NCBI GenBank assembly: GCA_023898565.1
Contig: CP060228.1
Span: 496,594 to 560,593, forward strand
From: Candidatus Nomurabacteria bacterium
GTDB taxonomy: Bacteria > Patescibacteriota > Minisyncoccia > Phycocordibacterales > UBA918
DNA length: 64,000 nt
Reading direction: 5' to 3'
Both the position numbers and the translations under genes were made by a program. Shown piece by piece: positions 1,765-53,843 of this stretch. Every line of letters starts with the position of its first letter. Position 1 is the first letter of the stretch. Below the pieces are notes generated by a model. It was not told the origin of the DNA, searched no databases, and was given only the letters and a program-made list of their open reading frames with translations.

Positions 1765-2175
1765 CTATTTTTTATTATCTGCGCTGCATTTCTCGCAACG
1801 GCAGCCCATCGGCTTAATGATTTGCTTGAAGTAGTCTTTGCCGTAGTGGTAGGTTAATTCTTCGCCAGGCGCAATTTTGCGTTTGGTATGAATAAATACT
1901 TGCTTCTCGTCGTCTGAGAGCTCGGCTTCGCAGTTTGGTTTGCAGCTGTGGTTTAGGTAGCGGGCGGTATTTTCGCGACCTTTACCATCAATGGTCCGCG
2001 CATCGTTAAGTTCAAAGAGATACTTGCCACCGCGTCGCTGCGCTTCCTCGTCAGTGATAATTTCCCCGGTGTACTCAATCACGAGTTCGCCTTTTTCATA
2101 CGCTTCGGTTGCAAAGAGTCCGAGTCCAGCACTGCTCCTACCAACGCGAAATTTTTTGCTGCCAGTTTTTTTCAT
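1765..2175 (-). CDS. SET-domain protein (putative protein-lysine methyltransferase)
   Basis: 136 aa with a GxG-like N-terminus, ELxY-type and NHSCKPNC motifs and a Cys-rich post-SET tail (CRCEKC). Confidence 0.75.
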   Translation of the reverse strand: MKKTGSKKFRVGRSSAGLGLFATEAYEKGELVIEYTGEIITDEEAQRRGGKYLFELNDARTIDGKGRENTARYLNHSCKPNCEAELSDDEKQVFIHTKRKIAPGEELTYHYGKDYFKQIIKPMGCRCEKCSADNKK

Positions 2176-2243: not shown

Positions 2244-4607
2244 ATGTGGGCAATGAGTGATGTTCTTGAAAAGTTCGTTCGCGCTGCCAATTATTTGTCA
2301 GCTGCGCAAATTTATTTAAAAGATAATGCATTATTAGCCGAGCCACTTCAGTCTGAGCATATTAAGCCGCGACTCTTGGGGCACTGGGGTACCTGTCCAG
2401 GTATCAACTTTACCTACGCTCATCTCAATCGGGCGATAATTGCGCACGATGTCGAGATGATGTTCGTGCTTGGTCCGGGGCACGGCTTCCCGGCGGTACA
2501 GGCCAATCTCTTCCTCGAGGGGACGTTATCGAAGTATTTCAAAGACATCACGCACAACTCAGCGGGCATTGCGCACATGGCGCGCATGTTCTCGTGGCCA
2601 TATGGCTACCCAAGTCACAGCAACCCAGAGGCGCCGGGCGTTATCCTTGAAGGTGGGGAGCTTGGCTACTCACTCTCTACCTCATACGGTGCCATTCTCG
2701 ATAATCCAGATTTGGTCGTGGCGTGTCTCGTTGGTGACGGTGAAGCTGAGACTGGTCCAACGGCCACGGCGTGGCATTTAAATAAATTAATCGACCCGGG
2801 CAAGAATGGCGCGGTGTTGCCAATCTTGCACCTCAATGGCTACAAGATTTCTGGCCCAACATTTTACGGACGCATGAGCGATGAAGAGCTCAAGGCGCTC
2901 TTCTGGGGTTACGGGTATGAACCACACTTTGTGGATGCGTATGTTGAAGAAGACGTACATGGTCGCATGATGGAGGTGATGGACGAGGCGATTGAAGCGA
3001 TTCGTTTTACGCAGCACTGCGCGCGTGAGGGGACGCTGCATGAGAATCCTCGTTTTCCAATGATTGTTTTGCGTACACCAAAGGGCTGGGGCAGTATCGA
3101 TTATATTGGTGAAAATAAAATTGAAGACAACTGTCTCTCACATCAAGTGATTGCTGACCAGGCAAAGACTGACGAAGGGCAGCGCAAGCAGCTCGAAGAC
3201 TGGCTTCGTTCGTATCGATTCCATGAGCTATGGGATGGCGAGAAGTTCGATGATGACATCATGAGCCTGATTCCGCGCGAAGGTCGTCGTATGGGTGATA
3301 CGCCACATGCTCGTGGCGGTGACCCAGTCTACAAGCCGCTCGTTTTGCCGAAGGTAGAAGACTACGACAAAGAGCAGATTTGTAATCTTGACGAACCAAT
3401 TTGTGGTACCGAAAGCGGTATGGAAAAGATTGGGTCGTACTTGCGTGATGCTATGAAGCTCAACGCTGACAATCGTAATCTTCGTCTCATGTCGCCAGAT
3501 GAGACCTACTCGAATAAGCTAAGTGCTGTTTTTGAAGTGACTAAACGTGCCTTTGTGTGGCCACATAAGGAATGGGATCGTGATATGGCGTGGGATGGTC
3601 GCGTGCTTGAGATGCTGTCTGAGCACTCACTCCAGGGGCTTTTACAGGGTTATGTGCTCACGGGTCGTCATGGCGTGTTTGTGTCATATGAAGCCTTCGT
3701 GCAGATTGTGGCGAGTATGACCGATCAATATTCAAAGTTTCTCAAAATTGCCCGTGATGTGAAATGGCGTGAAGCCTTCCCGTCACTCAACTACATCCTT
3801 ACCTCAGGTGCGTGGCGTCAAGAGCATAACGGCTTCTCACACCAAAACCCTGGCTTTATCGATGGGGTCTTGCAGCGACAGGGATGCTACACCAATGTGT
3901 ACTTTCCAGCCGACGCCAACTCAGCACTAGTGGCATTTGAGCGCATGATGAAGTCAACTAAGGAGATTAATGTGCTGGTGTGTGAAAAACGACCGCTCCC
4001 AGTCTGGCGTACCATTGATGAAGCCAAGCGTGACATGGAAGACGGTGTGGCAATTTGGGATTTTGCCAGTGATGAAGATCCACACATGGTCTTTGCGGCG
4101 GCAGGGGACTACCCAACACTCGAGGCGCTTGCAGCTATTAGTTTGGTCCGTCAGATGGTGCCGGCGATGCGCATGCGCTTTGTAAATATTTCTTCACTGT
4201 CAGCGCTTGGTATTGGCAACTCAAGTTGTCGCGTACTTCGTCATGACTTCAAACACTATTTCACCGAAGAGCAGCCAGTCTTGGTTAATTTCCACGGTTA
4301 CCCACAGACGATGAAACAGGTGCTCTTTGATTACGCTCAGAACCCAGATCGTTTCATTGTGCATGGGTACGAAGAAAGCGGCTCAACTACTACACCATTT
4401 GACATGATGGTGCGAAACCGCGTCGATCGTTACCACCTAGCGATGGAAGCCTTTGCAAAAGCTGCCGAGCAAAATGTGATTACTGAGACTGAAGCACAAA
4501 AGCTCATCTCAAGTTTCCAAGAGAAGTTGGCTGAACATCGTGCCTACGTAATTGAACACGGAGAAGATCTAGAAGAAATTACAAACTGGGTATGGCAACA
4601 ACGTTAG
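2244..4607 (+). CDS. xfp: Xylulose-5-phosphate/fructose-6-phosphate phosphoketolase
   Basis: 787 aa with a characteristic N-terminus (KFVRAANYLSAAQIYL), a GHWGTCPG motif and a TPP-enzyme-like length and composition. Confidence 0.92.
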   Translation: MWAMSDVLEKFVRAANYLSAAQIYLKDNALLAEPLQSEHIKPRLLGHWGTCPGINFTYAHLNRAIIAHDVEMMFVLGPGHGFPAVQANLFLEGTLSKYFKDITHNSAGIAHMARMFSWPYGYPSHSNPEAPGVILEGGELGYSLSTSYGAILDNPDLVVACLVGDGEAETGPTATAWHLNKLIDPGKNGAVLPILHLNGYKISGPTFYGRMSDEELKALFWGYGYEPHFVDAYVEEDVHGRMMEVMDEAIEAIRFTQHCAREGTLHENPRFPMIVLRTPKGWGSIDYIGENKIEDNCLSHQVIADQAKTDEGQRKQLEDWLRSYRFHELWDGEKFDDDIMSLIPREGRRMGDTPHARGGDPVYKPLVLPKVEDYDKEQICNLDEPICGTESGMEKIGSYLRDAMKLNADNRNLRLMSPDETYSNKLSAVFEVTKRAFVWPHKEWDRDMAWDGRVLEMLSEHSLQGLLQGYVLTGRHGVFVSYEAFVQIVASMTDQYSKFLKIARDVKWREAFPSLNYILTSGAWRQEHNGFSHQNPGFIDGVLQRQGCYTNVYFPADANSALVAFERMMKSTKEINVLVCEKRPLPVWRTIDEAKRDMEDGVAIWDFASDEDPHMVFAAAGDYPTLEALAAISLVRQMVPAMRMRFVNISSLSALGIGNSSCRVLRHDFKHYFTEEQPVLVNFHGYPQTMKQVLFDYAQNPDRFIVHGYEESGSTTTPFDMMVRNRVDRYHLAMEAFAKAAEQNVITETEAQKLISSFQEKLAEHRAYVIEHGEDLEEITNWVWQQR

Positions 4608-5779
4608 TTGTTAATCCGGGTAGCTCATCTAGAAAATATGCGCTGTACGAGCGCGGGCAAGTGGTGTTGGAGCTTCGGTTTGAAGATACTAATTCTGGCT
4701 TTGAAATGTGTTCACAGGTGTCGGGGACACAGCAGATTTGTGAAGCGGTTTCAAAAGATGATTTTACTGAAGCGTTTGCACGAGTAGAAGATGCAGTGAA
4801 CAGCTATCTGTTTCGTGAAGGGCGGGGGAGACGTCTTGATAACGTTGTGGTACGAGTTGTGGCGCCGGGAACTTTTTTCCAGCGACATGCGGTGATTGAT
4901 GACGCGTATGTTGCTGAGCTCAAAAAGAAAGTCACGGTAGCACCACTACACGTACCACACATTCTGCGTGAAATCGAAAGTGCGCAAAAGCATTTTAAGC
5001 AGGCGCGCTTGATTGCTGCATCTGATAGTGCGTTTCATAGCGAGATTCCACTGGTAGCACGTGAATACAGTATTCTTCGAGAAGATGCCAATGAGTTTGA
5101 TATTCATCGCTTTGGGTATCATGGACTGTCAGTTGCTTCTGTGGTGCGTCGTATTCATGCGCTTATTGGTCTTGATCCTGAGCGACTGGTGGTTTGTCAT
5201 ATTGGTAGCGGTACGAGTGTAACGGCGGTGAAAAATGGCAAGAGTGTTGAGACCTCTATGGGCTTTGCCCCTGCCACTGGACTTCCGATGGGGAGTCGGG
5301 CGGGAGATGTAGATACAGCAGCGCTCTTGGAATTGATGCGAGCAAAGCACTGGCGGCCGAGCGAAGCTGAGATGTATATCAATACCAATGGTGGCTTTGC
5401 TGGTATGGCTGGCGAGTCTGATATCCGACGCTTGCTCGATCGTCGCTCAAAGAATGATGCCGTGGCGGCACAGGCACTTAACGTGTTTGCCTATAATATG
5501 CAAAAAATGATTGCAGCTCAGACGGTCGCGCTTGGCGGCCTTGATGCGATAGTGCTCACGGCCACTGCGGCCGTGCGCAGCTCTGAGCTTCGTGCGCTTA
5601 TTTTACAAGGACTTTCGCATCTAGGTGTTCAGATGAGCAAAGATCGCAACGATCTCTTAGTGAGTAAGGAAGGAGTGATTAGTGTCCGCAACAGCACCGT
5701 GAAGGTGGTGGTAATGCGAACTGATGAAATGGGAGAGATGGCTCAGGTGGCTGAGCAAATTCTGCTTGGGGTTGTGTAA
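4592..5779 (+). CDS. ackA: Acetate kinase
   Basis: N-terminal LVVNPGSSSRKYALY (acetate/propionate kinase ATP motif) at about 395 aa. It overlaps the xfp stop by 16 nt, so the two genes form an operon. Confidence 0.88.
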   Translation: MATTLVVNPGSSSRKYALYERGQVVLELRFEDTNSGFEMCSQVSGTQQICEAVSKDDFTEAFARVEDAVNSYLFREGRGRRLDNVVVRVVAPGTFFQRHAVIDDAYVAELKKKVTVAPLHVPHILREIESAQKHFKQARLIAASDSAFHSEIPLVAREYSILREDANEFDIHRFGYHGLSVASVVRRIHALIGLDPERLVVCHIGSGTSVTAVKNGKSVETSMGFAPATGLPMGSRAGDVDTAALLELMRAKHWRPSEAEMYINTNGGFAGMAGESDIRRLLDRRSKNDAVAAQALNVFAYNMQKMIAAQTVALGGLDAIVLTATAAVRSSELRALILQGLSHLGVQMSKDRNDLLVSKEGVISVRNSTVKVVVMRTDEMGEMAQVAEQILLGVV

Positions 5780-5842
5780 ATCCTAAATCTTCTTGGTTTG
5801 GATGATAGTATACTAGTAAGCTTCTGAGCGATTGATAATTTT

Positions 5843-7153
5843 ATGTCTTGGTATCAAAAAAATCGTAAGCCACTCTTTCAGGCAATTCTTATATTTGTCC
5901 TGCTTTTTGGTTCAGTGGTGTTACTGACGCTTTACTATGATTTCACCAATATAGATCTTGGGGGATTATTGTTTCTGATGTCTTTCTTGTGTTGTGTTTT
6001 CGTGGCAAAAAATATCTATGACGTGACTCAGAATAGTGTAACCTCGGAAGAGCTTAAAAAAAGTGTTGCGCTCGATATGGCGGCTACGTCCGAAGAACTC
6101 TATGTACAGTTATATAAAAATAGTCCAGTTCCGTATCTTATCATCGATTTTGAGGGGAACATTAAATCTGCCAATATTTCTGCGGTACGCATGCTGGGAG
6201 TGGCGCAGCTTAAGGTAAAGGGTATTAATATTTTTAGTCGTTTGCAAAGTACTGAGCCCGAACATCTCGATTTACTGGTTGAAAAATACCGCAATGGTAT
6301 CGCGGTGAGCGATGAAATGGTTCGAGTGAGGCGTCCCGATCACCGCGAGGTTTGGTCACTTTTGTCACTTTTTGGTTTTACCAATGTTAGTGGCGAACGG
6401 GTTGGCCTCATGACGCTGGTTGATATCACCAAACAAAAAAAAGCTGAGGATGCAAAATCAGAATTTGTTTCGTTGGCCTCACACCAATTGCGCACACCAA
6501 TTGCTGGCATGAAGTGGAGCGCGGAGCTGCTTCTTATGGACGACTCAAATGCGCTCACAGAGCGTCAGCATAAGTACATTGATCGATTGCTTATCAGTAT
6601 CATGCGTATGTCTCGACTGGTTGACGACTTCCTTCGTGTTTCGCGCTTTGAATTAGGTACTTTTAAGGCGGAATACACCACGGTGTCTTTGTCAGAACTG
6701 TTTGATGACATCATATCAGAATTGGCTGTTAAAGTTGATCAGAAAAAACTCATCGTGAAAAAGTTTTACGATGAGACCGTTGACGCAGTAGTTACTGATC
6801 AAAATCTTATCCGGATGATCGTCACCAACTTATATTCAAACGCAACCAAATACACCCGTGAGGAGGGAACTATCCATTTAGGATTTGGACGCAAGGATGA
6901 CAGTCTGGTGATTACTGTGGCTGACAATGGTATGGGAATTCCGGCAGAAGACCAAGAAGAGATTTTCAGTAAATTATTCCGTGCATCCAACGCGGTTCGC
7001 AACGTGCCGGATGGGACAGGACTGGGGCTGTACATTGTTCGTGAAGCAGTTGCGGTACTAAAGGGTCAGGTTACCTTTACTACTACTGAAAATATTGGCA
7101 CTACGTTTGAAGTTACTTTGCCGCTAGAGCTCTCGGCTGAAACAAAAAAGTAA
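5843..7153 (+). CDS. Sensor histidine kinase (N-terminal TM, PAS-like domain, HisKA/HATPase_c)
   Basis: H-box SHQLRTPIAGMKW, N-box NLYSNATKYT and G-box GTGLGLYIVRE, with two N-terminal hydrophobic helices. Confidence 0.85.
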   Translation: MSWYQKNRKPLFQAILIFVLLFGSVVLLTLYYDFTNIDLGGLLFLMSFLCCVFVAKNIYDVTQNSVTSEELKKSVALDMAATSEELYVQLYKNSPVPYLIIDFEGNIKSANISAVRMLGVAQLKVKGINIFSRLQSTEPEHLDLLVEKYRNGIAVSDEMVRVRRPDHREVWSLLSLFGFTNVSGERVGLMTLVDITKQKKAEDAKSEFVSLASHQLRTPIAGMKWSAELLLMDDSNALTERQHKYIDRLLISIMRMSRLVDDFLRVSRFELGTFKAEYTTVSLSELFDDIISELAVKVDQKKLIVKKFYDETVDAVVTDQNLIRMIVTNLYSNATKYTREEGTIHLGFGRKDDSLVITVADNGMGIPAEDQEEIFSKLFRASNAVRNVPDGTGLGLYIVREAVAVLKGQVTFTTTENIGTTFEVTLPLELSAETKK

Positions 7154-7190
7154 GGGAAGAAGTAGTCGAGCCTAGTAAAAGAGCGCCTCT

Positions 7191-7562
7191 CTATGAGAGG
7201 CGCTCTTCGATTCGGGCGAGTAAATCCATGACGCTCCAGTTTGGTTTAAACAAAACATCCTCCAAAGGTAAATCAATATTTTTTGAAATGTTATCTACCG
7301 ATTCAGAAGCGGTAAGCACCATGATTTTTGCTTTCGCACCCCAGTCGGTTTCGCGGATGCGTCGATATACTTCGTAACCATCAATATCAGGTAGACGAAT
7401 GTCGAGCAGAATGAGGTCTGGTTTTTGCTCAATTGCCATAGCGACCCCCTCTCGTCCAGTTGGCGCTAACACTGCCTCGTAGCCTTTGATGCTTAGCATA
7501 TCGAATAATGATTCTGCTAGGTACGGAGAGTCTTCAATGACAAGTATCTTTTTCTTTTCCAT
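7191..7562 (-). CDS. Response regulator, receiver domain only (CheY-like)
   Basis: KILVIEDSP...LILLDIRLPDIDGYEV...K; 123 aa with no output domain. Confidence 0.85.
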   Translation of the reverse strand: MEKKKILVIEDSPYLAESLFDMLSIKGYEAVLAPTGREGVAMAIEQKPDLILLDIRLPDIDGYEVYRRIRETDWGAKAKIMVLTASESVDNISKNIDLPLEDVLFKPNWSVMDLLARIEERLS

Positions 7563-7659
7563 ACGTATTAGTGTAACTCATTTTTAAGGTTTTTGGGTTT
7601 TTGGCTGTGGTCGCGCCCGGGTAGCAGCTGTCATTCACTACTGTTTTTGGTAAGAAAAT

Positions 7660-8301
7660 GTGAGACAATACGTCAAAACTAATATGAAAAAACAATTTAT
7701 TCTTTTGCTGATTATTGTACTGGCTCTTGTCGGTTTTTTTCTGTACAAGCAAGTAGTAAAACCACAGCTTGATAACCGTACTGTTGCTACGGTTGTTCCG
7801 GCTACTATTACTAATGAAACGCTTGGTTTTGGATTCACATTTCCAAGTGGTGAAGCGGGCTTTTCAATGATTGAGCCGCCGCTTCCAGAAGGGAGTGTCG
7901 ATGGGTTGCAGAAGATTTATCTCATTATGGATACGCAGAGTTATCTGATGTACCAGCAAGGTGACGATGCTGAAACTCCGCCAGCAGTGAGCGTGTTTGT
8001 GTTCACGATGCCCGATATGGAAAGCGCTGACGGACTTGATAGACTTGGTAAGTTAAAATTGTGGGCAGAGACATACAGTCGATATTCATCGTACGCGCTC
8101 AAGACATCAGACATTGAGACGGTTGAGATGGATGGAATTAAGGCGATTCGCTACACTGCTGAAGGAGCGCTGTATAAACAACAGGTATATTTAGTGTCAT
8201 ATCAAGGCAATATCTACATGTTTGCGGGTCAGTACATCAATGATACAGACACAATTAGAGACATGTATCTTCAGTTAGTTGCTTCTGCGACATTCGATTA
8301 G
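7660..8301 (+). CDS. Hypothetical membrane-anchored protein
   Basis: N-terminal hydrophobic helix FILLLIIVLALVGFFLY. The likely start is the MKKQF Met at about 7684. No motif was recognised. Confidence 0.4.
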   Translation: MRQYVKTNMKKQFILLLIIVLALVGFFLYKQVVKPQLDNRTVATVVPATITNETLGFGFTFPSGEAGFSMIEPPLPEGSVDGLQKIYLIMDTQSYLMYQQGDDAETPPAVSVFVFTMPDMESADGLDRLGKLKLWAETYSRYSSYALKTSDIETVEMDGIKAIRYTAEGALYKQQVYLVSYQGNIYMFAGQYINDTDTIRDMYLQLVASATFD

Positions 8302-8374
8302 TCTGCGACAGTTATGTGAAATATAAAGAAAGCGCGTGTCACAGGACACGCGCTTTTAAATATGGAGAACTGCA

Positions 8375-9067
8375 TTATGCAACCCTCCGAAGGACTTCAA
8401 GTTCAGGTGCAGTATATTCCTGCGCCTGGGCTCGGCCGGTAATTTTGACCGTTTTGAACTGGTCTTTACCATGCTTTACCGTGATGCTGTACGGCAGTGC
8501 TTCGAACTGCACCCCAATTTTCTCCAGATGATTTGCCAGCAGCTCGCGAAGAACTGCGTAGGCTTCCTGGTAGTTGTGCTCATCAGCGTAGATGTGAATC
8601 GCGTCGGTGAGTACATTGAGGTAGCGGTTAATGCGACGCCGCTTCAGCAGGAACGGAATCACACGCATGGCGCGTCTGACCGTCTTGAAACGGCGAAGCG
8701 GCCCAAGCCACGTCGGCAGCTCCAGGCGATCAACCCGGATACCGAACCGACTAATCTCGATTGCGCCAGCTGGGATTTGATTGGTCGGCAGACCGTTTTC
8801 CCGTAGCACTTCTTTGACGGGCACTTCAATCAGCTCGTCTTCGATGATGATGCGGCAGCCGGCGACAACAACGCCACCTTCGACCAAAATGACAAACACG
8901 CTGTGCGCGTCGTATTGGTCGAAGCCTCCTTTGGGTTCCCACTTGTGCTTGTGCACATAGTGGTCGTCTCTGATTGTGATGTACTGGTGAATGAAATGCT
9001 CACCCTCCTCGTCACCGAGGCTGGTAAGCCAGACTTCGATGTTGCCATGGTTGTGGAGCATTTTCAT
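8375..9067 (-). CDS. LuxI/autoinducer-synthase-family acyltransferase-like protein (AHL synthase, N-acyl amino acid synthase or exosortase-associated acyltransferase type)
   Basis: Matches to LuxI-family signature positions: R..YV.K.KW (compare R..VFKERKGW), GGFDQYD (compare EIDQYD), VAGCRII (compare FGCWRIL) and AIEISRFGI (compare IWELSRFAI). Start chosen at MKMLHNHG because it has the SD GAAGGGG; the track's alternative GTG start at 9175 would add 36 aa. Confidence 0.55.
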   Translation of the reverse strand: MKMLHNHGNIEVWLTSLGDEEGEHFIHQYITIRDDHYVHKHKWEPKGGFDQYDAHSVFVILVEGGVVVAGCRIIIEDELIEVPVKEVLRENGLPTNQIPAGAIEISRFGIRVDRLELPTWLGPLRRFKTVRRAMRVIPFLLKRRRINRYLNVLTDAIHIYADEHNYQEAYAVLRELLANHLEKIGVQFEALPYSITVKHGKDQFKTVKITGRAQAQEYTAPELEVLRRVA

Positions 9068-9198
9068 GCGGTCACCCCTTCGGTGAAAATTTTTGTACTC
9101 GATTGATGGGAGAACCTCCCACCGCGAGAAAAGGGGAGGTTCCGCCTTTCCAAGAATGACAATAACAAATGTCACCTCAGAGCTGAAGCGACCCTATC

Positions 9199-9226
9199 AT
9201 ATATGTTGACAAATGTCAACATATAT
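9199..9226. promoter_or_regulatory. 28-bp perfect palindrome ATATATGTTGACA-AA-TGTCAACATATAT upstream of the LuxI-like gene; putative operator overlapping a -35 (TTGACA on both strands)
   Basis: Read directly: 13-bp arms with a 2-bp centre, located about 130 nt upstream of the 9067 start, in the intergenic region between two minus-strand genes. Confidence 0.45.
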
Positions 9227-9342
9227 TTTGCATAAAAAAGAAACTGAGTAATTTTCTGTTGAAAATAAAGACTGTTTTTGTGTCCTGATTAGGTAACTGT
9301 TATGCGCTCTAGTCAATATGGGGGAAACTTATGTGGTCTAAT

Positions 9343-10560
9343 TTAGTTCATATCGATAATCAAGCCGCCCCAGGTAAATTCTTGAGCTCCTTGTCCAATG
9401 CCTGTTTCTGGGTGGTAGTTTTCCCGAAAGCCGCTCTGTGTAATAAGTTTTTTACTCTGCTGCTTTAGTTCATTCGCCAAATCAGTAAAGCCGTTTCGCT
9501 TAAGTCCGTGGTATACGCACCAGTTACTCGCCATCCAGATTGAGCCGCGCCAGTCTGGATGTTGCCATGGTTGACCCCAAGCTGGTTCTGCAGGGTTGTA
9601 TGTTGGGTCTGTGCTGCTTACTGTAGGGAGTCGAAATGGAGTCGAAAAGCCAGGTGAGAGATAGTGGGTTTCAACGATTCGTTTTGCCTCAGCTTTAGTA
9701 TATTGGCCGGTCAGAAGTGGTGCAAAGTGTGACCAAGAATCAACGGTAGTTACCTTCTGTTCTTTCGCTCCATACAAACTACGATACACGGTACCGTCAA
9801 ACATATGTTCGCGCATAGCAGTAGCGATTTGATGACGATTGACTGCTAGTTGTTTGGCAATTGGCCGATCATTTAGTTCGGTGGCGATATGTTCCAATGC
9901 TTCAGTGTTAAGTATCATAAAGACATTGAACGGCACATCCTCTACCCAGAAGGACGTGGCGGTGCAGCCTACGGCGTCAAATCTACATTCTCGATGAACA
10001 TCAAATAACGCAACACGTTTTTCTCGGTGCACTGCGACGTCATGCTGCGAAGGAAGGTTCAGAGCCTCATCAAAGCGCGGTGAGTTGTCTTCACCAGATT
10101 CGTCAGGATTGATAATTCCAAGTAAGGAGCGCCCTGGTTGTTGTCGATTAATCAGATAATGGTGAAATCGGAGCAGGTGCGGGTAAAGCTGTTCCAGCCA
10201 ATCGCGATTTTTAGATGTCTGGTAGACACGCCAAGCGGCGTACGCTATAAGCGGTGGCTGTGTATGACTGCTGGTTTCTTGTACTCCCCAGTTGATTCGC
10301 ATCACGTCAAGGTTTGATTCCCAGTACAATATGTGTGGAATCATCCCGTCATCCCACTGTTTGGTAATTAGTGATGATAGTTCCGCTTCAGCAGCAGCCG
10401 GCTCAAGATGGGTGAGTATAATTGCATGAAAGCAAGAATCCCAGAGCCACTGATACGGGTAAGAGTCTGGGCTCGGGGTGGTGTATTGGTTCCCGTTTTT
10501 CTGACGTCGATTCCGTTGTAGCAGTTGATGTATGGCTTGTTGTTGCACCAAGGAAAGCAT
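9343..10560 (-). CDS. Glycoside hydrolase of the (alpha/alpha)6-barrel type (GH63 / mannosylglycerate-hydrolase-like or GH37-like)
   Basis: YPYQWLWDSCFHA motif and a second acidic region typical of GH63/trehalase-like six-hairpin glycosidases; 405 aa. Confidence 0.55.
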   Translation of the reverse strand: MLSLVQQQAIHQLLQRNRRQKNGNQYTTPSPDSYPYQWLWDSCFHAIILTHLEPAAAEAELSSLITKQWDDGMIPHILYWESNLDVMRINWGVQETSSHTQPPLIAYAAWRVYQTSKNRDWLEQLYPHLLRFHHYLINRQQPGRSLLGIINPDESGEDNSPRFDEALNLPSQHDVAVHREKRVALFDVHRECRFDAVGCTATSFWVEDVPFNVFMILNTEALEHIATELNDRPIAKQLAVNRHQIATAMREHMFDGTVYRSLYGAKEQKVTTVDSWSHFAPLLTGQYTKAEAKRIVETHYLSPGFSTPFRLPTVSSTDPTYNPAEPAWGQPWQHPDWRGSIWMASNWCVYHGLKRNGFTDLANELKQQSKKLITQSGFRENYHPETGIGQGAQEFTWGGLIIDMN

Positions 10561-11449: not shown

Positions 11450-11514
11450 AAAGCCCGGCAGTCAAAGACTGCCGGGCTTTAAAAAATGAAAGCCCGCCAT
11501 AAATGGCGGGCGTG
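11449..11514. terminator. Two adjacent GC-rich hairpins with flanking A/T runs; bidirectional intrinsic terminator pair
   Basis: GCCCGGCAGTCAAAGACTGCCGGGC followed by TTT, and GCCCGCCATAAATGGCGGGC. Confidence 0.6.
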
Positions 11515-14524: not shown

Positions 14525-14659
14525 TCATCGTCTCCTGTTGTGATGCCAAAATGGCGGGAACAAGTAGGCCAAATGGCCAGTTGCTGGTCGAACAATATAA
14601 TGAAAGTGGTGTTTTGTAAATAGAGGTTCTAATTTCCAAACATCTCTCCAAAATAAAGC

Positions 14660-14690
14660 AAAACGAGCCTTATAATATAAGGCTCGTTTT
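14660..14690. terminator. Intrinsic terminator hairpin with A-run and T-run, immediately 3' of tmRNA on the minus strand
   Basis: AAAACGAGCC-TTATAATATAA-GGCTCGTTTT. Confidence 0.6.
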
Positions 14691-14700
14691 GCTTCAGATT

Positions 14701-18167: not shown

Positions 18168-18181
18168 GCAAATAAATACAT

Positions 18182-18214
18182 AAAACAGCGGGCCCGAAGG
18201 GCCCGCTGTTTTAT
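18182..18214. terminator. Bidirectional intrinsic terminator between ftsH and the convergent ABC operon
   Basis: AACAGCGGGCCCGAAGGGCCCGCTGTT followed by TTATT. Confidence 0.65.
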
Positions 18215-21662: not shown

Positions 21663-21790
21663 GCTTTCTCCATTGTAGCATTGTTTGTCCGCCCACTTGG
21701 ACTGACCTAGTTATTAAGGAGTGGAACGACTGTAATAACGGAAATACTCTTGTGGTGCGAACCAAGTGTATTGATACGAAAAAAACCCTG

Positions 21791-21863
21791 TCCGCCCACT
21801 TGGACTCGAACCAAGGACCACAGAGGTATAAGCTCTGCGCTCTACCAACTGAGCTATAGGCGG
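21791..21863 (-). tRNA. tRNA with anticodon UAU (predicted tRNA-Ile reading AUA)
   Basis: The minus strand folds as CCGCCUA-UA-GCUC-AGUUGGUA-GAGC-G-CAGAG-CUUAUAC-CUCUG-UGGUC-CUUGG-UUCGAGU-CCAAG-UGGGCGG-A: an Ile-like D-arm, U33, A37 and anticodon UAU in a 7-nt loop. Confidence 0.7.
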
Positions 21864-24914: not shown

Positions 24915-25025
24915 CAGACCATCACAAGGTATTGATTTATTTTGACTTTTGTGTTACTATCTTAGTCGGATGTGGATGGCCAGTCGGCTGTCTTTTTTTG
25001 TGGGCAACTTTACGGAGGATATCCA

Positions 25026-25616
25026 ATGAAGCTCATGAAGCAAATGCTGGCCCTCCTGGCCGGACTCTCGTTCATCAACATGGCGCATGCGCTTCCGGTT
25101 CTGGAAGTGCACAATGGCGACACCTTTGATTACGTTCAAGGGACTAGCTATAACTTCGTGGCAAATCTCACGCAGGAAGACTACAAGTTCTCCTTCGGGG
25201 TTCGGAATTTTTGTCTGGAAGGAGCGATTCCGTCGCCGGCAACGTGCGGAGAGCTTGACGTCACCATCTCGGCACCGGAAGGCATGGACCTTTTCGTGGC
25301 TTACACCACAGGCCTCGACTTCGGTGGTACATACCTCGGTTATCCGATCGAGTATGGTGCGCCGGGCTTGCTCCCCGGGGGTGAGACCTACGTGTTCACC
25401 ATCGGTGGCACGCTTCGTCCGTCGGAGCTCCACGCAGTCGGTCTTTGGGTGCTTGATCCGAGCGTCTTGCCGGAAGGTGGTTATCCGGTCGGCTCGATCT
25501 ATCAAGGCAACATCGACTTGCCGCCCGTTTCTTCGGTGCCGGAACCCGGTTCGCTGGCGCTCATGCTGACTGGCCTCGGCCTGCTCGGTGTGACGGCGCG
25601 TCGCCGCAAAGTCTGA
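25026..25616 (+). CDS. PEP-CTERM-domain secreted protein (putative exosortase substrate)
   Basis: Signal peptide MKLMKQMLALLAGLSFINMAHA and C-terminal VPEPGSLALMLTGLGLLGVTARRRKV (PEP motif, TM helix, Arg-rich tail). SD GGAGGA 7 nt before ATG. Confidence 0.7.
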   Translation: MKLMKQMLALLAGLSFINMAHALPVLEVHNGDTFDYVQGTSYNFVANLTQEDYKFSFGVRNFCLEGAIPSPATCGELDVTISAPEGMDLFVAYTTGLDFGGTYLGYPIEYGAPGLLPGGETYVFTIGGTLRPSELHAVGLWVLDPSVLPEGGYPVGSIYQGNIDLPPVSSVPEPGSLALMLTGLGLLGVTARRRKV

Positions 25617-26916: not shown

Positions 26917-26966
26917 AAAAGCGCAAAAGGCGCGGCGAGCGAAGCTCGCCGCGCCTTTTGCGCTTT
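26915..26966 (+). terminator. Long GC-rich hairpin flanked by A-run and T-run
   Basis: AAAAAAGCGCAAAAGGCGCGGCGAGCGAAGCTCGCCGCGCCTTTTGCGCTTT. Confidence 0.65.
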
Positions 26967-27023
26967 ACGCCCACCCGCTTTCCTGTATGCTGACAGGGGT
27001 TTGTTTTTTTGAGGGAGAAAACC

Positions 27024-27887
27024 ATGCACACCAGAAATATTTCCTGGGCATCGGTGGTTGATGTAGTGGTATTACACACGCTGGGTTTGTGGGGCTTGTG
27101 GTATGCATTTGCGTACGCAAGCGGTTCGATTATTACGCTCGCGGTGGTGTGGTATGTGCTCGGCGGTCTTGGTGTCACGGTAGGGGCACATCGCTACTTC
27201 ACACATCAGGCATTTGTGCCGCGTACGTACCTTGCGTACGCACTGGCGATACTCTTTGCTTCTACCGGACAGGGTACGTTGCGCGACTGGGCAGCCAGGC
27301 ATTTGCAGCATCATGGCAATTCCGATGTGTCGGGGAAAGATCCACACTCGCCGGTAGATGGCTTCTGGCATGCGCATATGGGATGGATTTTGAAGCATGA
27401 CTCATTGCGTATTGAAGAAGTGTACAAGCTAGCGACGTACGGCAGTGATCTCAGGCGTCGAGTAGTCGATTGGGAGGCCCGGCACCATAAAGTGTTGGTG
27501 GTATCGATGGTGTTTGGGTTGCCGCTATTTCTTGGGCTGCTCTGTGGTGATGTGCTTGGCGGCTTCTTGGTGATTGGGTTTGCGCGACTTCTGGTGCTCT
27601 CACACAGCATCTGGTCGGTCAATTCCTTTGGTCATCGCTTTGGCGCCAAGACCAAGGCCGGAAGTCTCTCGCGCAATTACGGTAACCTGTTCCACGTGCC
27701 ATTCTTCGCCATTCTTACCCTTGGTGAGGCGTGGCATAGCAATCATCACGATGCGCCGCGAGATTGGAATCTGGGTAAAAAAATGACGGAGATTGATATC
27801 GGTGCCATGAGTATCTGGCTGCTTCACAAGCTCGGCTGGGTGCAATTTGCCTCTGACATACAGCCTCCGGGGTGTCGCCACGAGTAA
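27024..27887 (+). CDS. Membrane fatty-acid desaturase, Delta9 acyl-CoA/acyl-lipid desaturase family
   Basis: Three His boxes, HRYFTH, HLQHHGNSD and HSNHHDAP, in the Delta9-type order and spacing; four hydrophobic helices. SD GGGAG before the MHTRN Met. Confidence 0.8.
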   Translation: MHTRNISWASVVDVVVLHTLGLWGLWYAFAYASGSIITLAVVWYVLGGLGVTVGAHRYFTHQAFVPRTYLAYALAILFASTGQGTLRDWAARHLQHHGNSDVSGKDPHSPVDGFWHAHMGWILKHDSLRIEEVYKLATYGSDLRRRVVDWEARHHKVLVVSMVFGLPLFLGLLCGDVLGGFLVIGFARLLVLSHSIWSVNSFGHRFGAKTKAGSLSRNYGNLFHVPFFAILTLGEAWHSNHHDAPRDWNLGKKMTEIDIGAMSIWLLHKLGWVQFASDIQPPGCRHE

Positions 27888-38536: not shown

Positions 38537-40441
38537 TTACAGGTTAGGCTGCGAACGAATTTCGGGCACGGCACCCCGATAGATCACTGTGGTGTAATCA
38601 TCGGGGTCTGTTTCCGATACGAAATTGTAGCGGTCAAAGAGTGAGCGCATGCGTGGGTTTTTGCTGGCAAAGGTAATCGCGTGCAGTTCCTTCACACCCT
38701 TAGCGCGTGCCCAGTCCACCAGGGCTTCCATGAGGTGCGTACCGATGCCCAGGCCTTGCAGTTCGCTGTGGCGCGAGAATGACACTTCGTATGAGCCCTC
38801 ACTGGTCTGGAAGGCGTGAGCGATGCCGATGATGTAACCTCCTTGCTCCATGACGAATACGCCGTGATGGTTGTAATCCAAGGTGCTGTCGTACAACTTA
38901 ATCAGCCGACTTGAGGCTGTCAGGGTTTCGACAGGCATACACGAAAAGTATCGCGTTTCACGATCTCCTTTAGAAAGATGCGGAATGTACTCCCGGATGA
39001 GCTCGATATCTTCGTGGGTGGCTGGACGCACGATTGCTTCGCTGTCGTTGCGCAGCGTGACCAAGCGGGGAGTGATGGAATCAACTCCTTGCATAGCCGG
39101 CAGCGTTCTGACGTGTTTGGCAATTTGCGTGCGCAAATCAGGGTGCACAATCTGCAACATTCGCGACACCCGAGTTCGATCATCGACCATGCGCAGATCG
39201 GCCAGGCCATACTCCGTAACGATGACGACCGGCAAATCGGCACTGATGGTGTGATGCGCTCCTTCAGGGAGAGTTGGCACAATCTTGCTGATCACCGCGT
39301 CGCCACTTTTTGCAGTGCTCGGCAGTGCAATGAATGACAGACCGCCTTCGGCCCAGGTAGCACCAAGCGCAAAGTCGTTCTGTCCGCCGACGTCTGAGTA
39401 GTAGTGTCGCTGCCGGGTGGCAGCTGCTACTTCACCAGCCAGACTGACTGCCAGTGTGGTGTTTACACTGACCATGTGCCGGTTCTGTTTGATGAGTCCA
39501 GGATCATTGACGAATTGCTGTGGCAAGACCAGGAAGTGCGGATTTTCGTGCATGGTGTCGTAGAGATCTCGACTGCCAAGCACAAAGCCGACAACAGCAT
39601 GGTCGCGCAGATTGGTGCCGCCAGCGCGTTTGATGAGTCCTTTTCGGTACAGGTCCAAAACTCCGTCAGAGAACATCTCTGACCACACGCCTTCGATGCA
39701 CCGATTTTGTGCCGCCAACTGAGCGGCAATGGCATTTGGAATTGCACCAATGCCAAGCTGCAGTATGTGGGGAAGCGTACCGTTTGGAAGAATGTCTTTT
39801 TCGAGCTCTCCCATGATATGTTCAGCAATTTTCTGAGCTGACAAAGCTGCCTCAGCTTTGGGTATCATGGTATGTTCGAGAAGGGGTTGGTCAATGTGAA
39901 CAACAACATCAAAGTCACGTAGATACATTGGGCAGCCGCTCTCGTAGTGCTGGTTTGTTTCGGGATCAAAGTACTGCCCGATATGCCAGCGCGGCATTTG
40001 CGCATTGACGACGGCAATCTTGAATCGAGCAGCTTTGACAGCTGCGTCGTCGAGTCCAGCGTTGAGACCGAGAGTAACTCGCCCCGCTTCGTCCGGCAGA
40101 GATACATGTGCAAAGGCGACATCGGGTCGCCAGGCACCGTCATACAGTCGATGTACCTGCGAGAGGTTGCAGCGGATATTCTTGGCGAGTCCAGCGTTCA
40201 CCAGAGCGCGGACGCCCGGGCCGATAAAAGCGGTGACTGGTGTTACGCCACCAGCAACTGCTTTAGCCCAGTCGTTTGCCTTGCCGAGCGAGAGAAGTTG
40301 AAAGACTTGTGTGCCCTTGATTTGTTGAGCATTGTCGAAAATCCAGCGCTCGACGTCAGTGATGACGGCGGTGTTGCCCGGCAGGTAGCAAACTGACTGT
40401 TTTGAGCCATTCTTTTGCAGCTTGGCTGCGGCTACTGCCAT
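38537..40441 (-). CDS. Fusion protein: acetyl-CoA hydrolase/transferase family domain (about 440 aa) plus a C-terminal GNAT acyltransferase domain
   Basis: SDVGGQNDFALGA, matching the SGVGGQxDF motif of 4-hydroxybutyrate/acetyl-CoA transferases, then a GNAT-like C-terminus (HGVFVMEQGGYIIGIAHA...LQGLGIGTHLMEALVDWARAKG). Confidence 0.6.
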   Translation of the reverse strand: MAVAAAKLQKNGSKQSVCYLPGNTAVITDVERWIFDNAQQIKGTQVFQLLSLGKANDWAKAVAGGVTPVTAFIGPGVRALVNAGLAKNIRCNLSQVHRLYDGAWRPDVAFAHVSLPDEAGRVTLGLNAGLDDAAVKAARFKIAVVNAQMPRWHIGQYFDPETNQHYESGCPMYLRDFDVVVHIDQPLLEHTMIPKAEAALSAQKIAEHIMGELEKDILPNGTLPHILQLGIGAIPNAIAAQLAAQNRCIEGVWSEMFSDGVLDLYRKGLIKRAGGTNLRDHAVVGFVLGSRDLYDTMHENPHFLVLPQQFVNDPGLIKQNRHMVSVNTTLAVSLAGEVAAATRQRHYYSDVGGQNDFALGATWAEGGLSFIALPSTAKSGDAVISKIVPTLPEGAHHTISADLPVVIVTEYGLADLRMVDDRTRVSRMLQIVHPDLRTQIAKHVRTLPAMQGVDSITPRLVTLRNDSEAIVRPATHEDIELIREYIPHLSKGDRETRYFSCMPVETLTASSRLIKLYDSTLDYNHHGVFVMEQGGYIIGIAHAFQTSEGSYEVSFSRHSELQGLGIGTHLMEALVDWARAKGVKELHAITFASKNPRMRSLFDRYNFVSETDPDDYTTVIYRGAVPEIRSQPNL

Positions 40442-40580
40442 GACTTCAGCAATGGTATTGAGGATGCGTTACGACATGGTGCTTCTCCTTGTAGAAAAAG
40501 TAGTGTGACAAAAAACTATAAATCCGCCAGATAGTCTACTCGCGAAAAGGGTGTTGTCAATTTGAGGTGGCGGTGGCAAT

Positions 40581-40621
40581 AAAATCAGCCGGCGCGGACG
40601 AAGTCCGCGCCGGCTGATTTT
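40581..40621. terminator. Long A/T-flanked hairpin downstream of the nitroreductase gene
   Basis: AAAATCAGCCGGCGCGGACGAAGTCCGCGCCGGCTGATTTT. Confidence 0.65.
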
Positions 40622-40637
40622 ATTAAGTGTTACACCG

Positions 40638-42301: not shown

Positions 42302-42423
42302 GGAGAGCTTCGCTCGACTATAAAAACGGAAATGCTCCTGTGGCGGTCCTGACCAAGAGAGCTAGGTCGGCAGTCAGTCAGAGTGAGTCACGAAGGATTT
42401 GCTCAAAACCTATACCAGAAAAA

Positions 42424-42449
42424 GCGCGGCCCGAAGGGCCGCGCTTTTT
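42424..42449 (+). terminator. Intrinsic terminator
   Basis: GCGCGGCCCGAAGGGCCGCGC followed by TTTTT. Confidence 0.65.
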
Positions 42450-42489: not shown

Positions 42490-43044
42490 ATGAATGAAAT
42501 ATTGAGTGATGAAGCAATTGCCGAAGCTGTACAAAATGGTAAGGTTTCCGCTTTTGGTGAGCTTGTTTCGCGCTATGAAGCAAAATTAAAACGATACGCT
42601 CGCAAGTTTCTCTCTCGCGAAGAGGATATTGAAGACTTGGTGCAAGACGTTTTTATAAAGGCCTACGAGCATATTCAATCGTTTAATACTGAACTGCGTT
42701 TTTCGCCGTGGATATATCGCATTGCACACAACGCGTTTGTGAATGAGCTCAGACGAAAAAGTCGCTACGGATTTGGCCTCTTTGATGCTGATGCAATTTT
42801 GCCGCTCATTGCTGCGCCAGAAACTGCGGACCAGGATGCACTTGATGGTGAAGTCCGCGCTGAGCTTGAAAAGTATCTCGCGACACTGGCACCCAAGTAT
42901 CGTGAAGTAATTGTGTTGCATTACTTCGAAGATCTATCGTATCAAGAGATAAGTGACGTGTTACAGGTGCCGGTAAATACCGTGGGAGTGCGCATGACAA
43001 GAGCAAGAGCACAACTAAAGAAGATTATAAGTAATGCTGCATAA
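42490..43044 (+). CDS. ECF-type RNA polymerase sigma factor (sigma-70 regions 2 and 4)
   Basis: Region 2 DLVQDVFIKAY...PWIYRIAHNAFVNELRRK and region 4 LSYQEISDVLQVPVNTVGVRMTRARAQLKK. Confidence 0.85.
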   Translation: MNEILSDEAIAEAVQNGKVSAFGELVSRYEAKLKRYARKFLSREEDIEDLVQDVFIKAYEHIQSFNTELRFSPWIYRIAHNAFVNELRRKSRYGFGLFDADAILPLIAAPETADQDALDGEVRAELEKYLATLAPKYREVIVLHYFEDLSYQEISDVLQVPVNTVGVRMTRARAQLKKIISNAA

Positions 43045-44457: not shown

Positions 44458-45126
44458 ATGAACTTGCCAATTGAGGTGTGGCAAAGCGCTGCGATTGGTC
44501 TTGGTGTCGTGTCAGTGATTTTGGCTGGCGCGTATCTCATGTGTCGTCGTGAGTGCGTGTTGCTGCGGGCAGAAAATGAAGTGTTACTTCAGCTCGCTAA
44601 CACGGATCAGTTGACTGGCCTAGGTAATCGTCGGCTGTTCTCAGCGCGGGCGGAGTATCTCATGAAGTTGTTACCAACTCCGTCGACAAATCAGGCACGT
44701 TATCGCGAGCGGCAGGCGCATATTCCAGCGTTGACTGCAATCTACATCGATATCGACCATTTCAAGCAGATTAATGACACCTACGGGCATCCTGCCGGCG
44801 ATGTAGTGTTGCGCACACTTGCGGTGCAATTGCGTAAGCTGTTGCGGGACAGCGATCTCATCTGTCGCTTTGGCGGTGAAGAGTTTGTGGTCTTGTTGCC
44901 CGACGATGCAACTGACGCTTTGCGAGTGGCAGAAAAAATCCGTACGGCTATTGCCAACGTTGATTTCGGAATTAAGGATTTGCTGGGTATCACGATTAGC
45001 ATTGGTCTGTGCTCGGTAGCTTGTCAGGTGCCGCTTGACCAGTTGTTGTCCCGAGCGGACGCTGCACTTTATGCCGCCAAACAGAGCGGTCGGAATCGAG
45101 TGGTGGTGTTTCCTTTCTCCGATTGA
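44458..45126 (+). CDS. Membrane-anchored GGDEF diguanylate cyclase
   Basis: N-terminal TM, then RFGGEEFVVLLPD (GGEEF active site) and RNRVVVF. Confidence 0.8.
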   Translation: MNLPIEVWQSAAIGLGVVSVILAGAYLMCRRECVLLRAENEVLLQLANTDQLTGLGNRRLFSARAEYLMKLLPTPSTNQARYRERQAHIPALTAIYIDIDHFKQINDTYGHPAGDVVLRTLAVQLRKLLRDSDLICRFGGEEFVVLLPDDATDALRVAEKIRTAIANVDFGIKDLLGITISIGLCSVACQVPLDQLLSRADAALYAAKQSGRNRVVVFPFSD

Positions 45127-45854: not shown

Positions 45855-46946
45855 ATGAGCTTTATTACCAACATTCTTTCATCGCTTCAGTCCAAAGATG
45901 GTTCTGGGAGCAGTGTTGTAGGTATTGATGTCGGGTCTGCGTCAATGAAGGTGGTTGAGCTTGAGGAGCGCAAGGGAGTGGTAACGCTCGTAACATACGG
46001 TGAAGTACAACTTGGTCCATATGCTGGAAAACAACTTGGGGATTCAGTCACGCTTGACGCAAAGCAAGAGCAAGAGGCTTTGGTTGACGTCATTCGCGAG
46101 TCTGCCGTTAAGGCTCGCAACGCAGTTTTTGCCATGCCATTGTCTTCAAGTTTTGTAACCAATGTCAGTATTGACGCAGACGCAGACGCAGATTTAAGTT
46201 CTATGGTTCGTGTCGAAGCACGCAAAGTCATTCCCGCGTCTCTTAGTGAAGTGACACTTGATTGGGCTGAAGTTGAAGTGACCAAGAAAGAGGCCGAGAA
46301 TCATGAGACAGATCGCCGCAATGTTTTAATTGCTGCAATTCAAAATTCTGCCCTTGAGCGTTTTAAAGTGCTCATGCAGTTCGTCGGAATTCAAAACCCA
46401 CCAACAGAGATTGAGTGCTTTAGTTCAATCCGCAGTTTGTATAGTTCGGATGAGTCCGATTTTGCAATCATTGATATTGGTGCCACCTCTGCCAAGTTGT
46501 ACATCACGCGCAAAGGGTTGCTAATGCGCATGTACCGTATTCGCGCTGGTGGGGCTATAGCTACCAAAAAAATCTCAGAAACACTTAACATCAATTTTGA
46601 AACCGCCGAGGAGTTAAAATACATAGCCGACAAACAAGCGAGTAATTTTACCGACATGAAGCGCGCACATAACAGTAGTTACGATCGGGCTTTCCGGGAG
46701 TTCAATCAGGTGTTGCGCGAGTATGAGCAACGTACTGGTGTAAAAATTAGTACCGTCTATCTTTCTGGCGGGGGAGCACTTTTCCCTGGTATTGATGCTC
46801 ACCTCAAGGACGCGCTTAGTCGAGAGGTAATCCTGTCAAATCCATTTGCGCGTGTCGCGTATCCAGCCTTTATGGAAGATACTATGAAAGAGATTGGTCC
46901 ATCGTTTACTGTTGCGGTTGGCGCTGCGCTGCGATCATTTGAGTAG
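45855..46946 (+). CDS. pilM: Type IV pilus assembly protein PilM (actin-like ATPase)
   Basis: VVGIDVGSASMKVVEL... and the FtsA/PilM fold pattern; first gene of the pilus operon. Confidence 0.85.
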   Translation: MSFITNILSSLQSKDGSGSSVVGIDVGSASMKVVELEERKGVVTLVTYGEVQLGPYAGKQLGDSVTLDAKQEQEALVDVIRESAVKARNAVFAMPLSSSFVTNVSIDADADADLSSMVRVEARKVIPASLSEVTLDWAEVEVTKKEAENHETDRRNVLIAAIQNSALERFKVLMQFVGIQNPPTEIECFSSIRSLYSSDESDFAIIDIGATSAKLYITRKGLLMRMYRIRAGGAIATKKISETLNINFETAEELKYIADKQASNFTDMKRAHNSSYDRAFREFNQVLREYEQRTGVKISTVYLSGGGALFPGIDAHLKDALSREVILSNPFARVAYPAFMEDTMKEIGPSFTVAVGAALRSFE

Positions 46947-46999
46947 TGTTTCCACAGCTCTGAACTCTTTTTCTTCTATTTGTACGTATAATTAAAGGT

Positions 47000-48327: not shown

Positions 48328-48328
48328 T

Positions 48329-50862: not shown

Positions 50863-50868
50863 ATTGTT

Positions 50869-51936: not shown

Positions 51937-51949
51937 TTACTATTTTCGT

Positions 51950-53167: not shown

Positions 53168-53176
53168 TTACAAAAC

Positions 53177-53212
53177 AAAAGGCGCGGCCCTTCGGGCCGC
53201 GCCTTTTGTTTT
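53177..53212 (+). terminator. Intrinsic terminator
   Basis: AAAAGGCGCGGCCCTTCGGGCCGCGCCTTTTGTTTT. Confidence 0.7.
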
Positions 53213-53823: not shown

Positions 53824-53843
53824 TAATTGGAGTGCTGTACAAA

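Follow-up and report, generated by a model that had tools for sequence, protein, structure and literature searches.

The question raised by this locus is whether a small acyltransferase gene of Candidatus Nomurabacteria bacterium encodes a LuxI-type synthase of acyl-homoserine lactones (AHLs) or an enzyme of another kind, and how such a gene might be controlled. The gene lies on the reverse strand at 8375-9067 of a 64,000-nucleotide stretch of contig CP060228.1 (positions 496,594 to 560,593 of assembly GCA_023898565.1), hereafter referred to as the window, and its predicted product comprises 230 aa. Judged by profile comparisons and structure modelling, the protein is a true but outlying member of the LuxI/N-acyl-amino-acid-synthase superfamily, with a GNAT fold; upstream of its gene there are a dyad operator and a structured leader, both conserved in related loci.

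The candidate phyla radiation (CPR, Patescibacteria) makes up a large share of bacterial diversity and consists of obligate epibionts. The LuxI-like genes of the CPR have so far been presented only as homology listings. Bernard et al. (mSystems 2020, PMC7567580) reported 36 LuxI homologues in the CPR, including Parcubacteria-group phyla, 18 of which adjoin a putative sensory kinase, and proposed them as candidate complete quorum-sensing systems. The first-pass annotation of the window had placed the gene in a lineage not expected to signal by AHLs; this claim of novelty falls, since LuxI homologues had already been predicted in Parcubacteria and other CPR groups in 2020. The survey was based on BLAST and hidden Markov model (HMM) thresholds and contained no regulatory analysis or experiments, its 36 homologues may or may not include the clade of the window protein, and no experimental follow-up of the CPR predictions was found in the literature. 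The present analysis adds the placement of a rare clade between LuxI enzymes and N-acyl amino acid synthases, an operator with compensatory evolution, a leader RNA and a contrast in evolutionary rate, the last three of which do not appear in PMC7567580. The locus is a concrete cassette, small enough to be synthesised (a 230-aa enzyme, a promoter, an operator and a leader RNA, each testable in E. coli), and makes a good test case for chemical signalling in CPR symbionts.

Placement of the protein in the LuxI superfamily

The longest open reading frame (ORF) of the locus covers 8375-9175 on the reverse strand (266 aa, GTG start). The true start is almost certainly the ATG at 9067 (MKMLHNHG..., stop codon at 8375-8377), because a Shine-Dalgarno (SD) sequence, AAGGGG, precedes it at 9075-9080 and because the DNA upstream of this ATG is kept in another reading frame in the homologue of the related locus L001, where the proteins are 76% identical. 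In view of the frame change in L001, a coding extension up to the GTG at 9175 was rejected. The LuxI-type blocks that had been read by eye in the protein are exact for GGFDQYD, VAGCRII and AIEISRFGI; the first block was misregistered, since it reads RDDHYVHKHKW, that is, R...YV.K.KW, with one residue more than stated. After the ExSR strand, members of the window's subclade contain a 38-residue insertion (residues 111-148) with 13 Arg/Lys residues, which may be a docking surface for acyl carrier protein (ACP) or for a membrane.

The family is rare. A word-indexed search found two relatives with the single sequence and seven with a profile, and an exhaustive HMMER search among 1.84 billion representative proteins found 19 clusters at E ≤ 1e-3; a search for related loci with a five-sequence alignment yielded one genome locus and three metagenome loci. 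The family profile was built from 20 sequences and the profile of the core clade from ten members. Core and distant members are homologous (hhalign probability 99.9%). Members outside the core clade reach the Autoind_synth model with an E-value of 1.7e-7 and the TraI model with 3.7e-8; the JGI name of one distant member is N-acyl-L-homoserine lactone synthetase, and PF00765 is found in another.

A comparison of the 20-member profile with the PDB retrieved every solved LuxI-type AHL synthase over nearly its full length, including RpaI (E = 2.5e-13), BjaI (2e-12), LasI (2.1e-10), EsaI (3.3e-8), MesI (4e-8) and TofI (4.9e-6), followed by a generic GNAT protein at about 2.4e-3 and then by chance-level matches. 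The seven best PDB matches of the core-clade profile were likewise all AHL synthases (LasI 7.7e-7, RpaI 5e-5). Profile alignment to LasI, RpaI, BjaI and EsaI places R33, Y37, W43, D50, D53, R72, E104, S106 and R107 of the window protein at the LuxI signature positions, matching the LasI blocks LR, VF, GW, EID, YD, WRI and ELSR; the LasI counterparts we take to be R23, F27, W33, D44, D47, R70, E101, S103 and R104. Six of these residues (W43, D50, R72, E104, S106 and R107) are invariant in 20 of the 20 family members. The AlphaFold 2 model of the window protein (pLDDT 90.9) has the GNAT-like fold of LuxI-type enzymes, and a Foldseek search of the PDB with it put MesI, LasI, BjaI, TofI, EsaI and RpaI on top (E-values of about 1e-6 to 1e-5, target TM 0.55-0.66), with the N-acyl amino acid synthase FeeM much weaker (2e-4). 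Since the profile matches, the signature residues and the fold model agree, homology to the LuxI superfamily can be regarded as established; the likeness first noticed by eye survives proper alignment, and both the family profile and Foldseek favour AHL synthases.

At the same time, the window protein is outside both curated families suggested for it. It has no match to PF00765 (Autoind_synth, gathering threshold 24 bits) even at E ≤ 10, and TIGR03694, the model of the exosortase-associated acyltransferase group, matches it at 31.2 bits (E = 1.4e-7), far below the cutoff of 111.95 bits. The TIGR03694 match is the only one in NCBIfam; it bears out the proposed kinship with N-acyl amino acid synthases and exosortase-associated acyltransferases and falls short of membership. 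PF13444 (Acetyltransf_5) scores 13.3 bits (E = 0.14), its gathering threshold of 22.4 bits not being reached, and PF21926 (FeeM) attains at most 21.7 bits in the core clade against a gathering threshold of 27. Compared with the LuxI AHL synthases (PF00765; LasI, EsaI and TofI, and the CoA-dependent BjaI, RpaI and MesI), the window gene has in common the fold, the nine signature residues and the form of a small (about 200-230 aa) stand-alone gene. It differs in that the protein is about 12-17% identical to the solved enzymes and contains the 38-residue basic insertion, and in that the locus, which belongs to a Parcubacteria host, has neither a LuxR partner nor a lux box.

Proposed operator and leader RNA upstream of the gene

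The dyad ATATATGTTGACA-AA-TGTCAACATATAT occupies positions 9199-9226 and has the core TTGAC-N4-GTCAA; its arms (9199-9211 and 9214-9226) are 13 nt long and 100% complementary, and its central AA is not self-complementary. The perfect 28-bp palindrome of the first-pass annotation is right as regards the perfect arms; the whole is a dyad of the 13+2+13 type (or 12-nt arms with a 4-nt centre) and not a strict palindromic 28-mer. First-order Markov simulation of the window, repeated 40 times, gave best perfect arms of 8-11 nt, so arms of 13 nt are beyond chance. The core occurs a single time in the 64-kb window, where no second copy of the dyad that could point to a regulon was found. Of the related loci, L001, L002 and L012 alone have the dyad, in each case at the orthologous promoter. 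Two arm positions differ between the window and L001, each mirrored by a complementary change in the opposite arm, and the dyad is 82% identical between the two, versus about 60% for the flanking non-coding DNA; in L012, where the protein is 36% identical, the sequence ATATTGAC-AAAA-GTCAATAT is found at the same promoter position. The mirrored double substitutions at orthologous promoters show that the dyad is real and under selection for symmetry, and they provide good evidence that it is the site of a dimeric DNA-binding protein.

A sigma-70 promoter is predicted on the reverse strand at 9191-9219, composed of the -35 hexamer TTGACA (9219-9214), a 17-nt spacer and a TG-extended -10 hexamer TAGGGT (9196-9191), with a transcription start near 9184; the left half-site of the dyad is the -35 hexamer itself. 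The -10 hexamer matches the consensus at three of six positions, a point against the promoter call and the reason why a simple promoter scanner misses it. Promoters of the TTGACA-16/17-TATAAT type are located at the same distance from the start codon in L003, L004, L011, L012, L013 and L015, and those of L003, L004, L011, L013 and L015, which are without the dyad, have near-consensus -10 boxes.

The position of the dyad, centred near -28.5 over the -35 box and the spacer, implies repression and not activation of the LuxR type (-42.5). A dimeric protein bound there would occlude RNA polymerase from a promoter with a strong -35 box and a weak, TG-extended -10 box, and would thus act as a repressor. 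The description of the palindrome as lux-box-like has to be given up: the lux box is a 20-bp dyad at about -42.5, and the window dyad differs in sequence, length and position; nor does it resemble what we take to be the lux-box consensus. Sites of the CRP/FNR type have the consensus TTGAT-N4-ATCAA. The window dyad has the same 5-4-5 geometry and a near-identical half-site, which may serve as a lead, whereas CRP/FNR sites lie at -41.5 or -61.5 and the window dyad, with its extended A+T-rich arms, near -28.5. Pfam scans of about 55 window ORFs, a few small ones being left out, revealed no gene of the CRP/FNR family, no LuxR gene and no other obvious dimeric regulator. The receiver-only response regulator encoded nearby (see below) cannot bind the operator directly, because it is without a DNA-binding domain. 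In L001 and L012, small ORFs lie divergent from the gene; as candidates for the operator-binding regulator they were rejected, being unlike helix-turn-helix proteins.

The three promoters with the operator all have further GTCAA/TCAAC half-sites at a distance of 25-50 bp upstream of the dyad (L012 2234-2283; window about 9255-9270, reverse strand; L001 about 8392-8402). Those of L012 form a second, larger and imperfect inverted repeat, which may be an auxiliary operator or a product of chance.

Between the promoter and the start codon, the reverse strand encodes a conserved structured 5' leader (9068-9190), and a leader of about 100-115 nt precedes every core-clade gene for which enough upstream sequence is available. 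Its core motif (9100-9146) consists of element A (CCUCCCC, resembling an anti-SD sequence), element B (GGGAGG) and element C (CUCCC), in which B can pair with C, and A either with the SD region or with B. The 3' part (9068-9099) includes the SD sequence (AAGGGG, 9080-9075) and GGGGUGACCGC, whose partner in a nested fold is element A together with its 5' flank (GCGG...CCCC). Across the clade the elements read GGUCUCCC/ACCUCCCC for A, GGGAGA/GGGAGG for B and UCUCUC/CUCCC for C, followed by the SD sequence. The motif was located in the relatives at L001 8516-8562, L003 531-581, L004 275-326, L006 1045-1096 and 1834-1885, L007 1232-1279, L011 5937-5985 and L012 2337-2385. A 5'-proximal hairpin, P0 (9171-9192, reverse strand), varies in sequence by lineage and is present as a hairpin in every leader.

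All seven leaders tested are predicted to adopt the same nested, SD-sequestering fold (z-scores of -2.6 to -6.5), in which the SD region, as far as the start codon, is paired with A and its flank, and this helix surrounds the B:C hairpin. Pairing reaches 95% in helix B:C, where three pairs differ on both sides (only one of 500 shuffles reaches its covariation score), and 96.5% in the competing helix A:B, where one pair covaries. MAFFT alignments of the leaders were not consistent with the structure, so that these counts, which come from a hand-registered, N-padded alignment made with the structure in mind and spanning about six independent lineages, lean towards the structure; this weakens the case for the fold. 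In the window the nested form and A:B are nearly equal in energy; in the other leaders the nested form is ahead by 3-9 kcal/mol. The covariance model R1 finds the motif in the window at 41.2 bits (E = 1.2e-11) as its sole copy, and in the other loci likewise once per locus and always in an acyltransferase leader. Between the window and L001 the motif is 94% identical, compared with 60-63% for the flanking untranslated region and 75.5% for the coding sequence, and it is nearly identical even between tandem paralogues whose proteins are 64.5% identical. Searched against Rfam 15, region 8950-9350 had no match better than chance level (E > 2), and no match reached the gathering threshold.

In the mechanism that this arrangement suggests, the anti-SD element A of the leader (about 115 nt) would pair with the SD region as the outer helix around the B:C hairpin, and pairing of A with B instead would free the ribosome-binding site. 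As A and B emerge first during transcription, a transient open form could occur, or a factor could stabilise it. We infer from this that the leader controls translation by concealing the ribosome-binding site; it is a candidate for a new class of cis-regulatory RNA, peculiar to this gene family, and had escaped the first-pass annotation. Like RNA thermometers and translational riboswitch platforms, it combines anti-SD pairing with a competing helix, here A:B; it differs from them in being without an Rfam match or a recognisable aptamer and in the restriction of its motif to one gene family. A role of the leader hairpin as a terminator or attenuator was rejected, as no U-tract follows A:B and the combination of P0 with a T-rich tail seen in the window is not conserved.

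Gene neighbourhood and likely product

The acyltransferase gene is monocistronic, because a bidirectional intrinsic terminator, AAAGCGCGTGTC-ACAG-GACACGCGCTTT (8329-8356), ends the unit between the acyltransferase gene and the convergent gene of a membrane-anchored protein, p213. A terminator of its own likewise follows the acyltransferase gene in L003 and L012, and on this ground an operon with the response regulator was rejected.

The gene order phosphoketolase (XFP), acetate kinase (AckA), histidine kinase, response regulator, acyltransferase is shared by the window, L001, L003/L005, L004 and L012, while the other flank of the acyltransferase gene varies. The histidine kinase (5843-7153, forward strand) has two N-terminal transmembrane helices and PAS, HisKA and HATPase domains, and is a candidate receptor by synteny; the syntenic response regulator (7191-7562, reverse strand, 123 aa) consists of a receiver without an output domain. 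In L003, a Candidatus Parcubacteria metagenome-assembled genome (JAACPT010000011) syntenic with the window, the phosphoketolase is 88%, the acetate kinase 77%, the histidine kinase 72% and the response regulator 82% identical to their window counterparts. The acyltransferases of L003, L004 and L012 are 36-40% identical to that of the window, as against 72-88% for the neighbours (2244-7562). Tandem LuxI-like paralogues are encoded in L006 (1114-1692 and 1904-2140, the latter cut) and L004 (1-135 and 341-901); they are 64.5% identical, and each has its own promoter, near-identical leader and terminator. This rate contrast and the tandem duplication fit the diversification of a signal or of an antagonistic molecule.

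For the acyl acceptor and the product, AHL-type (LuxI-type) chemistry is tentatively the most likely assignment. The amine of S-adenosylmethionine (SAM) would receive the acyl group of an acyl-thioester (acyl-CoA or acyl-ACP), and lactonisation would give a diffusible molecule like an acyl-homoserine lactone, with the release of methylthioadenosine (MTA). The PAS kinase and the receiver-only regulator, by virtue of their synteny, may sense the product or control the enzyme. A further-reaching and rather unlikely version would see in the locus a self-contained signalling cassette of a CPR symbiont, composed of a fast-diversifying LuxI-like synthase of a new acylated signal (possibly made from acyl-CoA or host-derived chains), an undescribed riboregulator, a dedicated operator, and the kinase and receiver-only regulator as the reader; this would amount to LuxR-independent, AHL-type and possibly host-directed signalling in a lineage that has neither an outer membrane nor fatty-acid synthesis.

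Several findings weigh against AHL chemistry. Apart from the absence of a PF00765 match, phmmer with the single window sequence found no match to any solved AHL synthase or other structure, and the signature residues need not separate SAM-using from amino-acid-using enzymes. Single-sequence HMMs put the core clade at least as near to models of N-acyl amino acid synthases as to LuxI models: TIGR03694 matches eight of the ten members (18-35 bits) and is the best match of those eight, Acetyltransf_5 matches four (18-26 bits, with P0005, at 26.0 bits, above the Pfam cutoff), FeeM three (14-22 bits), Autoind_synth three (13-16.5 bits) and TraI one (13.6 bits). The 64-kb window shows no genes for SAM, ACP or MTA recycling, and CPR bacteria are generally without fatty-acid synthesis, which makes the acyl donor problematic. 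As the first-pass annotation had stated, no LuxR-type gene adjoins the acyltransferase, and the scan of about 55 window ORFs turned up none either; the cognate receptor of a LuxI/LuxR circuit, with Autoind_bind and GerE domains, is thus missing from the ORFs scanned. The kinase is of a generic PhoR/WalK-like PAS type, not LuxN-like, and its adjacency is confined to fairly related genomes, being absent in L007, L011, L016 and L018. The AHL chemistry suggested in the first-pass annotation was overstated, and the sequence does not establish an AHL product.

These single-sequence matches at the same time speak for a synthase of N-acyl amino acids, which would acylate a free amino acid instead of SAM from acyl-ACP and yield an N-acyl amino acid lipid with the action of a surfactant, an antibiotic or a biofilm factor; such an activity is possible, if doubtful. 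Genes of this kind are reported to go with PEP-CTERM/exosortase systems, and TIGR03694-type enzymes also with N-acyl amino acids of long chain length (Craig et al. 2011, as cited in PMC7293339). The same genome does encode a PEP-CTERM protein, and the Arg/Lys-rich insertion (13 of 38 residues) could dock the acidic ACP. However, TIGR03694 genes usually lie within or close to the locus of such a system; here the PEP-CTERM gene is at a distance of 16 kb and the acyltransferase gene adjoins no exosortase or exopolysaccharide (EPS) locus, all the TIGR03694 scores are far below the 112-bit cutoff, and the family profile, which matches every AHL synthase, has no match to the solved N-acyl amino acid synthase FeeM at E ≤ 10, FeeM being the weaker match structurally as well.

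An N-acyltransferase of membrane-lipid synthesis, OlsB-like or another aminolipid enzyme that would build envelope lipids from scavenged acyl chains and make no signal, is an improbable alternative. Acetyltransf_5, which presumably also contains the OlsB-type enzymes, matches 11 of the 20 family members; CPR bacteria rely on scavenged lipids; a fatty-acid desaturase is encoded at 27009-27887; and the insertion, basic and amphipathic, could bind the membrane as a helix. Of a housekeeping lipid enzyme one would, however, not expect 36-40% identity next to neighbours at 72-88%, restriction to 19 clusters and absence from most CPR genomes, or a dedicated operator and an SD-sequestering leader, and no OlsA-like partner gene of lipid synthesis adjoins it.

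Least probable of all, and hardly to be expected, is a generic or decaying GNAT protein without a signalling role, with the dyad as an accident of a TTGACA box in an A+T-rich promoter and the kinase synteny as shared ancestry: the unmet thresholds of the curated families, the solo position of the distant members in housekeeping contexts and the presence of the operator in only three of about nine lineages would suit it, but the ORFs are intact, the catalytic signature is invariant over 20 divergent members, the fold is predicted with high confidence, mirrored compensatory substitutions maintain the dyad, the leader surpasses the coding sequence in conservation even between paralogues, and every copy is equipped with a strong promoter and a terminator of its own.

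With AHL-type chemistry as the tentative preference, identification of the product would show whether AHL or N-acyl amino acid chemistry exists in the CPR and which acyl donor is used. Should the enzyme prove to be an ordinary N-acyl amino acid synthase or a lipid enzyme, the locus would be a modest extension of a known superfamily.

Other features of the window

The p213 gene (7684-8301, forward strand) lies between the regulator and acyltransferase genes in the window's subclade only. Its product has an N-terminal transmembrane helix and would be anchored in the membrane, with an extracytoplasmic domain of PsbP/DcrB/Mog1-like fold (AlphaFold 2 pLDDT 86.6, best PDB matches CyanoP/PsbP); searches of Pfam and NCBIfam assigned it to no family, and it shows 59-61% identity where its neighbours show about 90%. 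A role as an accessory protein or receptor was rejected in view of its restriction to the subclade and of a distant homologue unlinked to any acyltransferase or kinase; p213 probably stands outside the acyltransferase system.

A conserved sequence containing GTTACACT is found directly 5' of the start of the receiver-only regulator gene in the window (7563-7600), L003 (1250-1275) and L012 (3140-3167). Two genomes share, beside the phosphoketolase gene, a gene for a SET-domain protein resembling lysine methyltransferases (window 1765-2175, reverse strand; L012 8505-8903).

The PEP-CTERM protein noted in the first-pass annotation is confirmed at 24972-25616 on the forward strand (PF07589, E = 1.8e-7; TIGR02595, 24.9 bits against a cutoff of 16), and the window ORFs that were scanned include no exosortase. 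The usual subjects of discussion about PEP-CTERM systems are Gram-negative bacteria that produce EPS, and the genome here is Parcubacteria-like. The overall content of the window fits a CPR genome, with a type IV pilus cluster, FtsH, RecG, LigA, GatA, SmpB/tmRNA and many proteins without an assigned family. The pilus cluster (45855-57824) encodes PilM, PilB/PilT ATPases, PilC, a prepilin peptidase and pilins; an extracytoplasmic function (ECF) sigma factor is encoded at 42490-43044 and a stand-alone GGDEF diguanylate cyclase at 44458-45126. An acetyl-CoA hydrolase/transferase fused to a C-terminal GNAT acetyltransferase domain is encoded at 38537-40441 on the reverse strand.

Perfect hairpins with stems of 13-23 bp occur in intergenic DNA at 26918-26966, 40578-40624, 62388-62430, 53172-53212 and 14656-14694, and further ones at 18180-18214, 42419-42449, 11450-11480 and 7179-7207. 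They are G+C-rich, several have a GCGAAGC/CGAAG loop and flanking A- and T-tracts, and their stems are far above the simulated maximum of 11; these hairpins look like bidirectional intrinsic terminators. A perfect hairpin with a 20-bp stem and a GCGAAGC loop is also present at 58114-58156, inside the ORF of an NAD-dependent DNA ligase (57828-59843, adenylation domain), which is odd for coding DNA. In most bacteria, AUA is read by a lysidine-modified CAU tRNA; an unusual decoding feature of the window is a tRNA-Ile with the anticodon UAU, encoded at 21790-21863 on the reverse strand.

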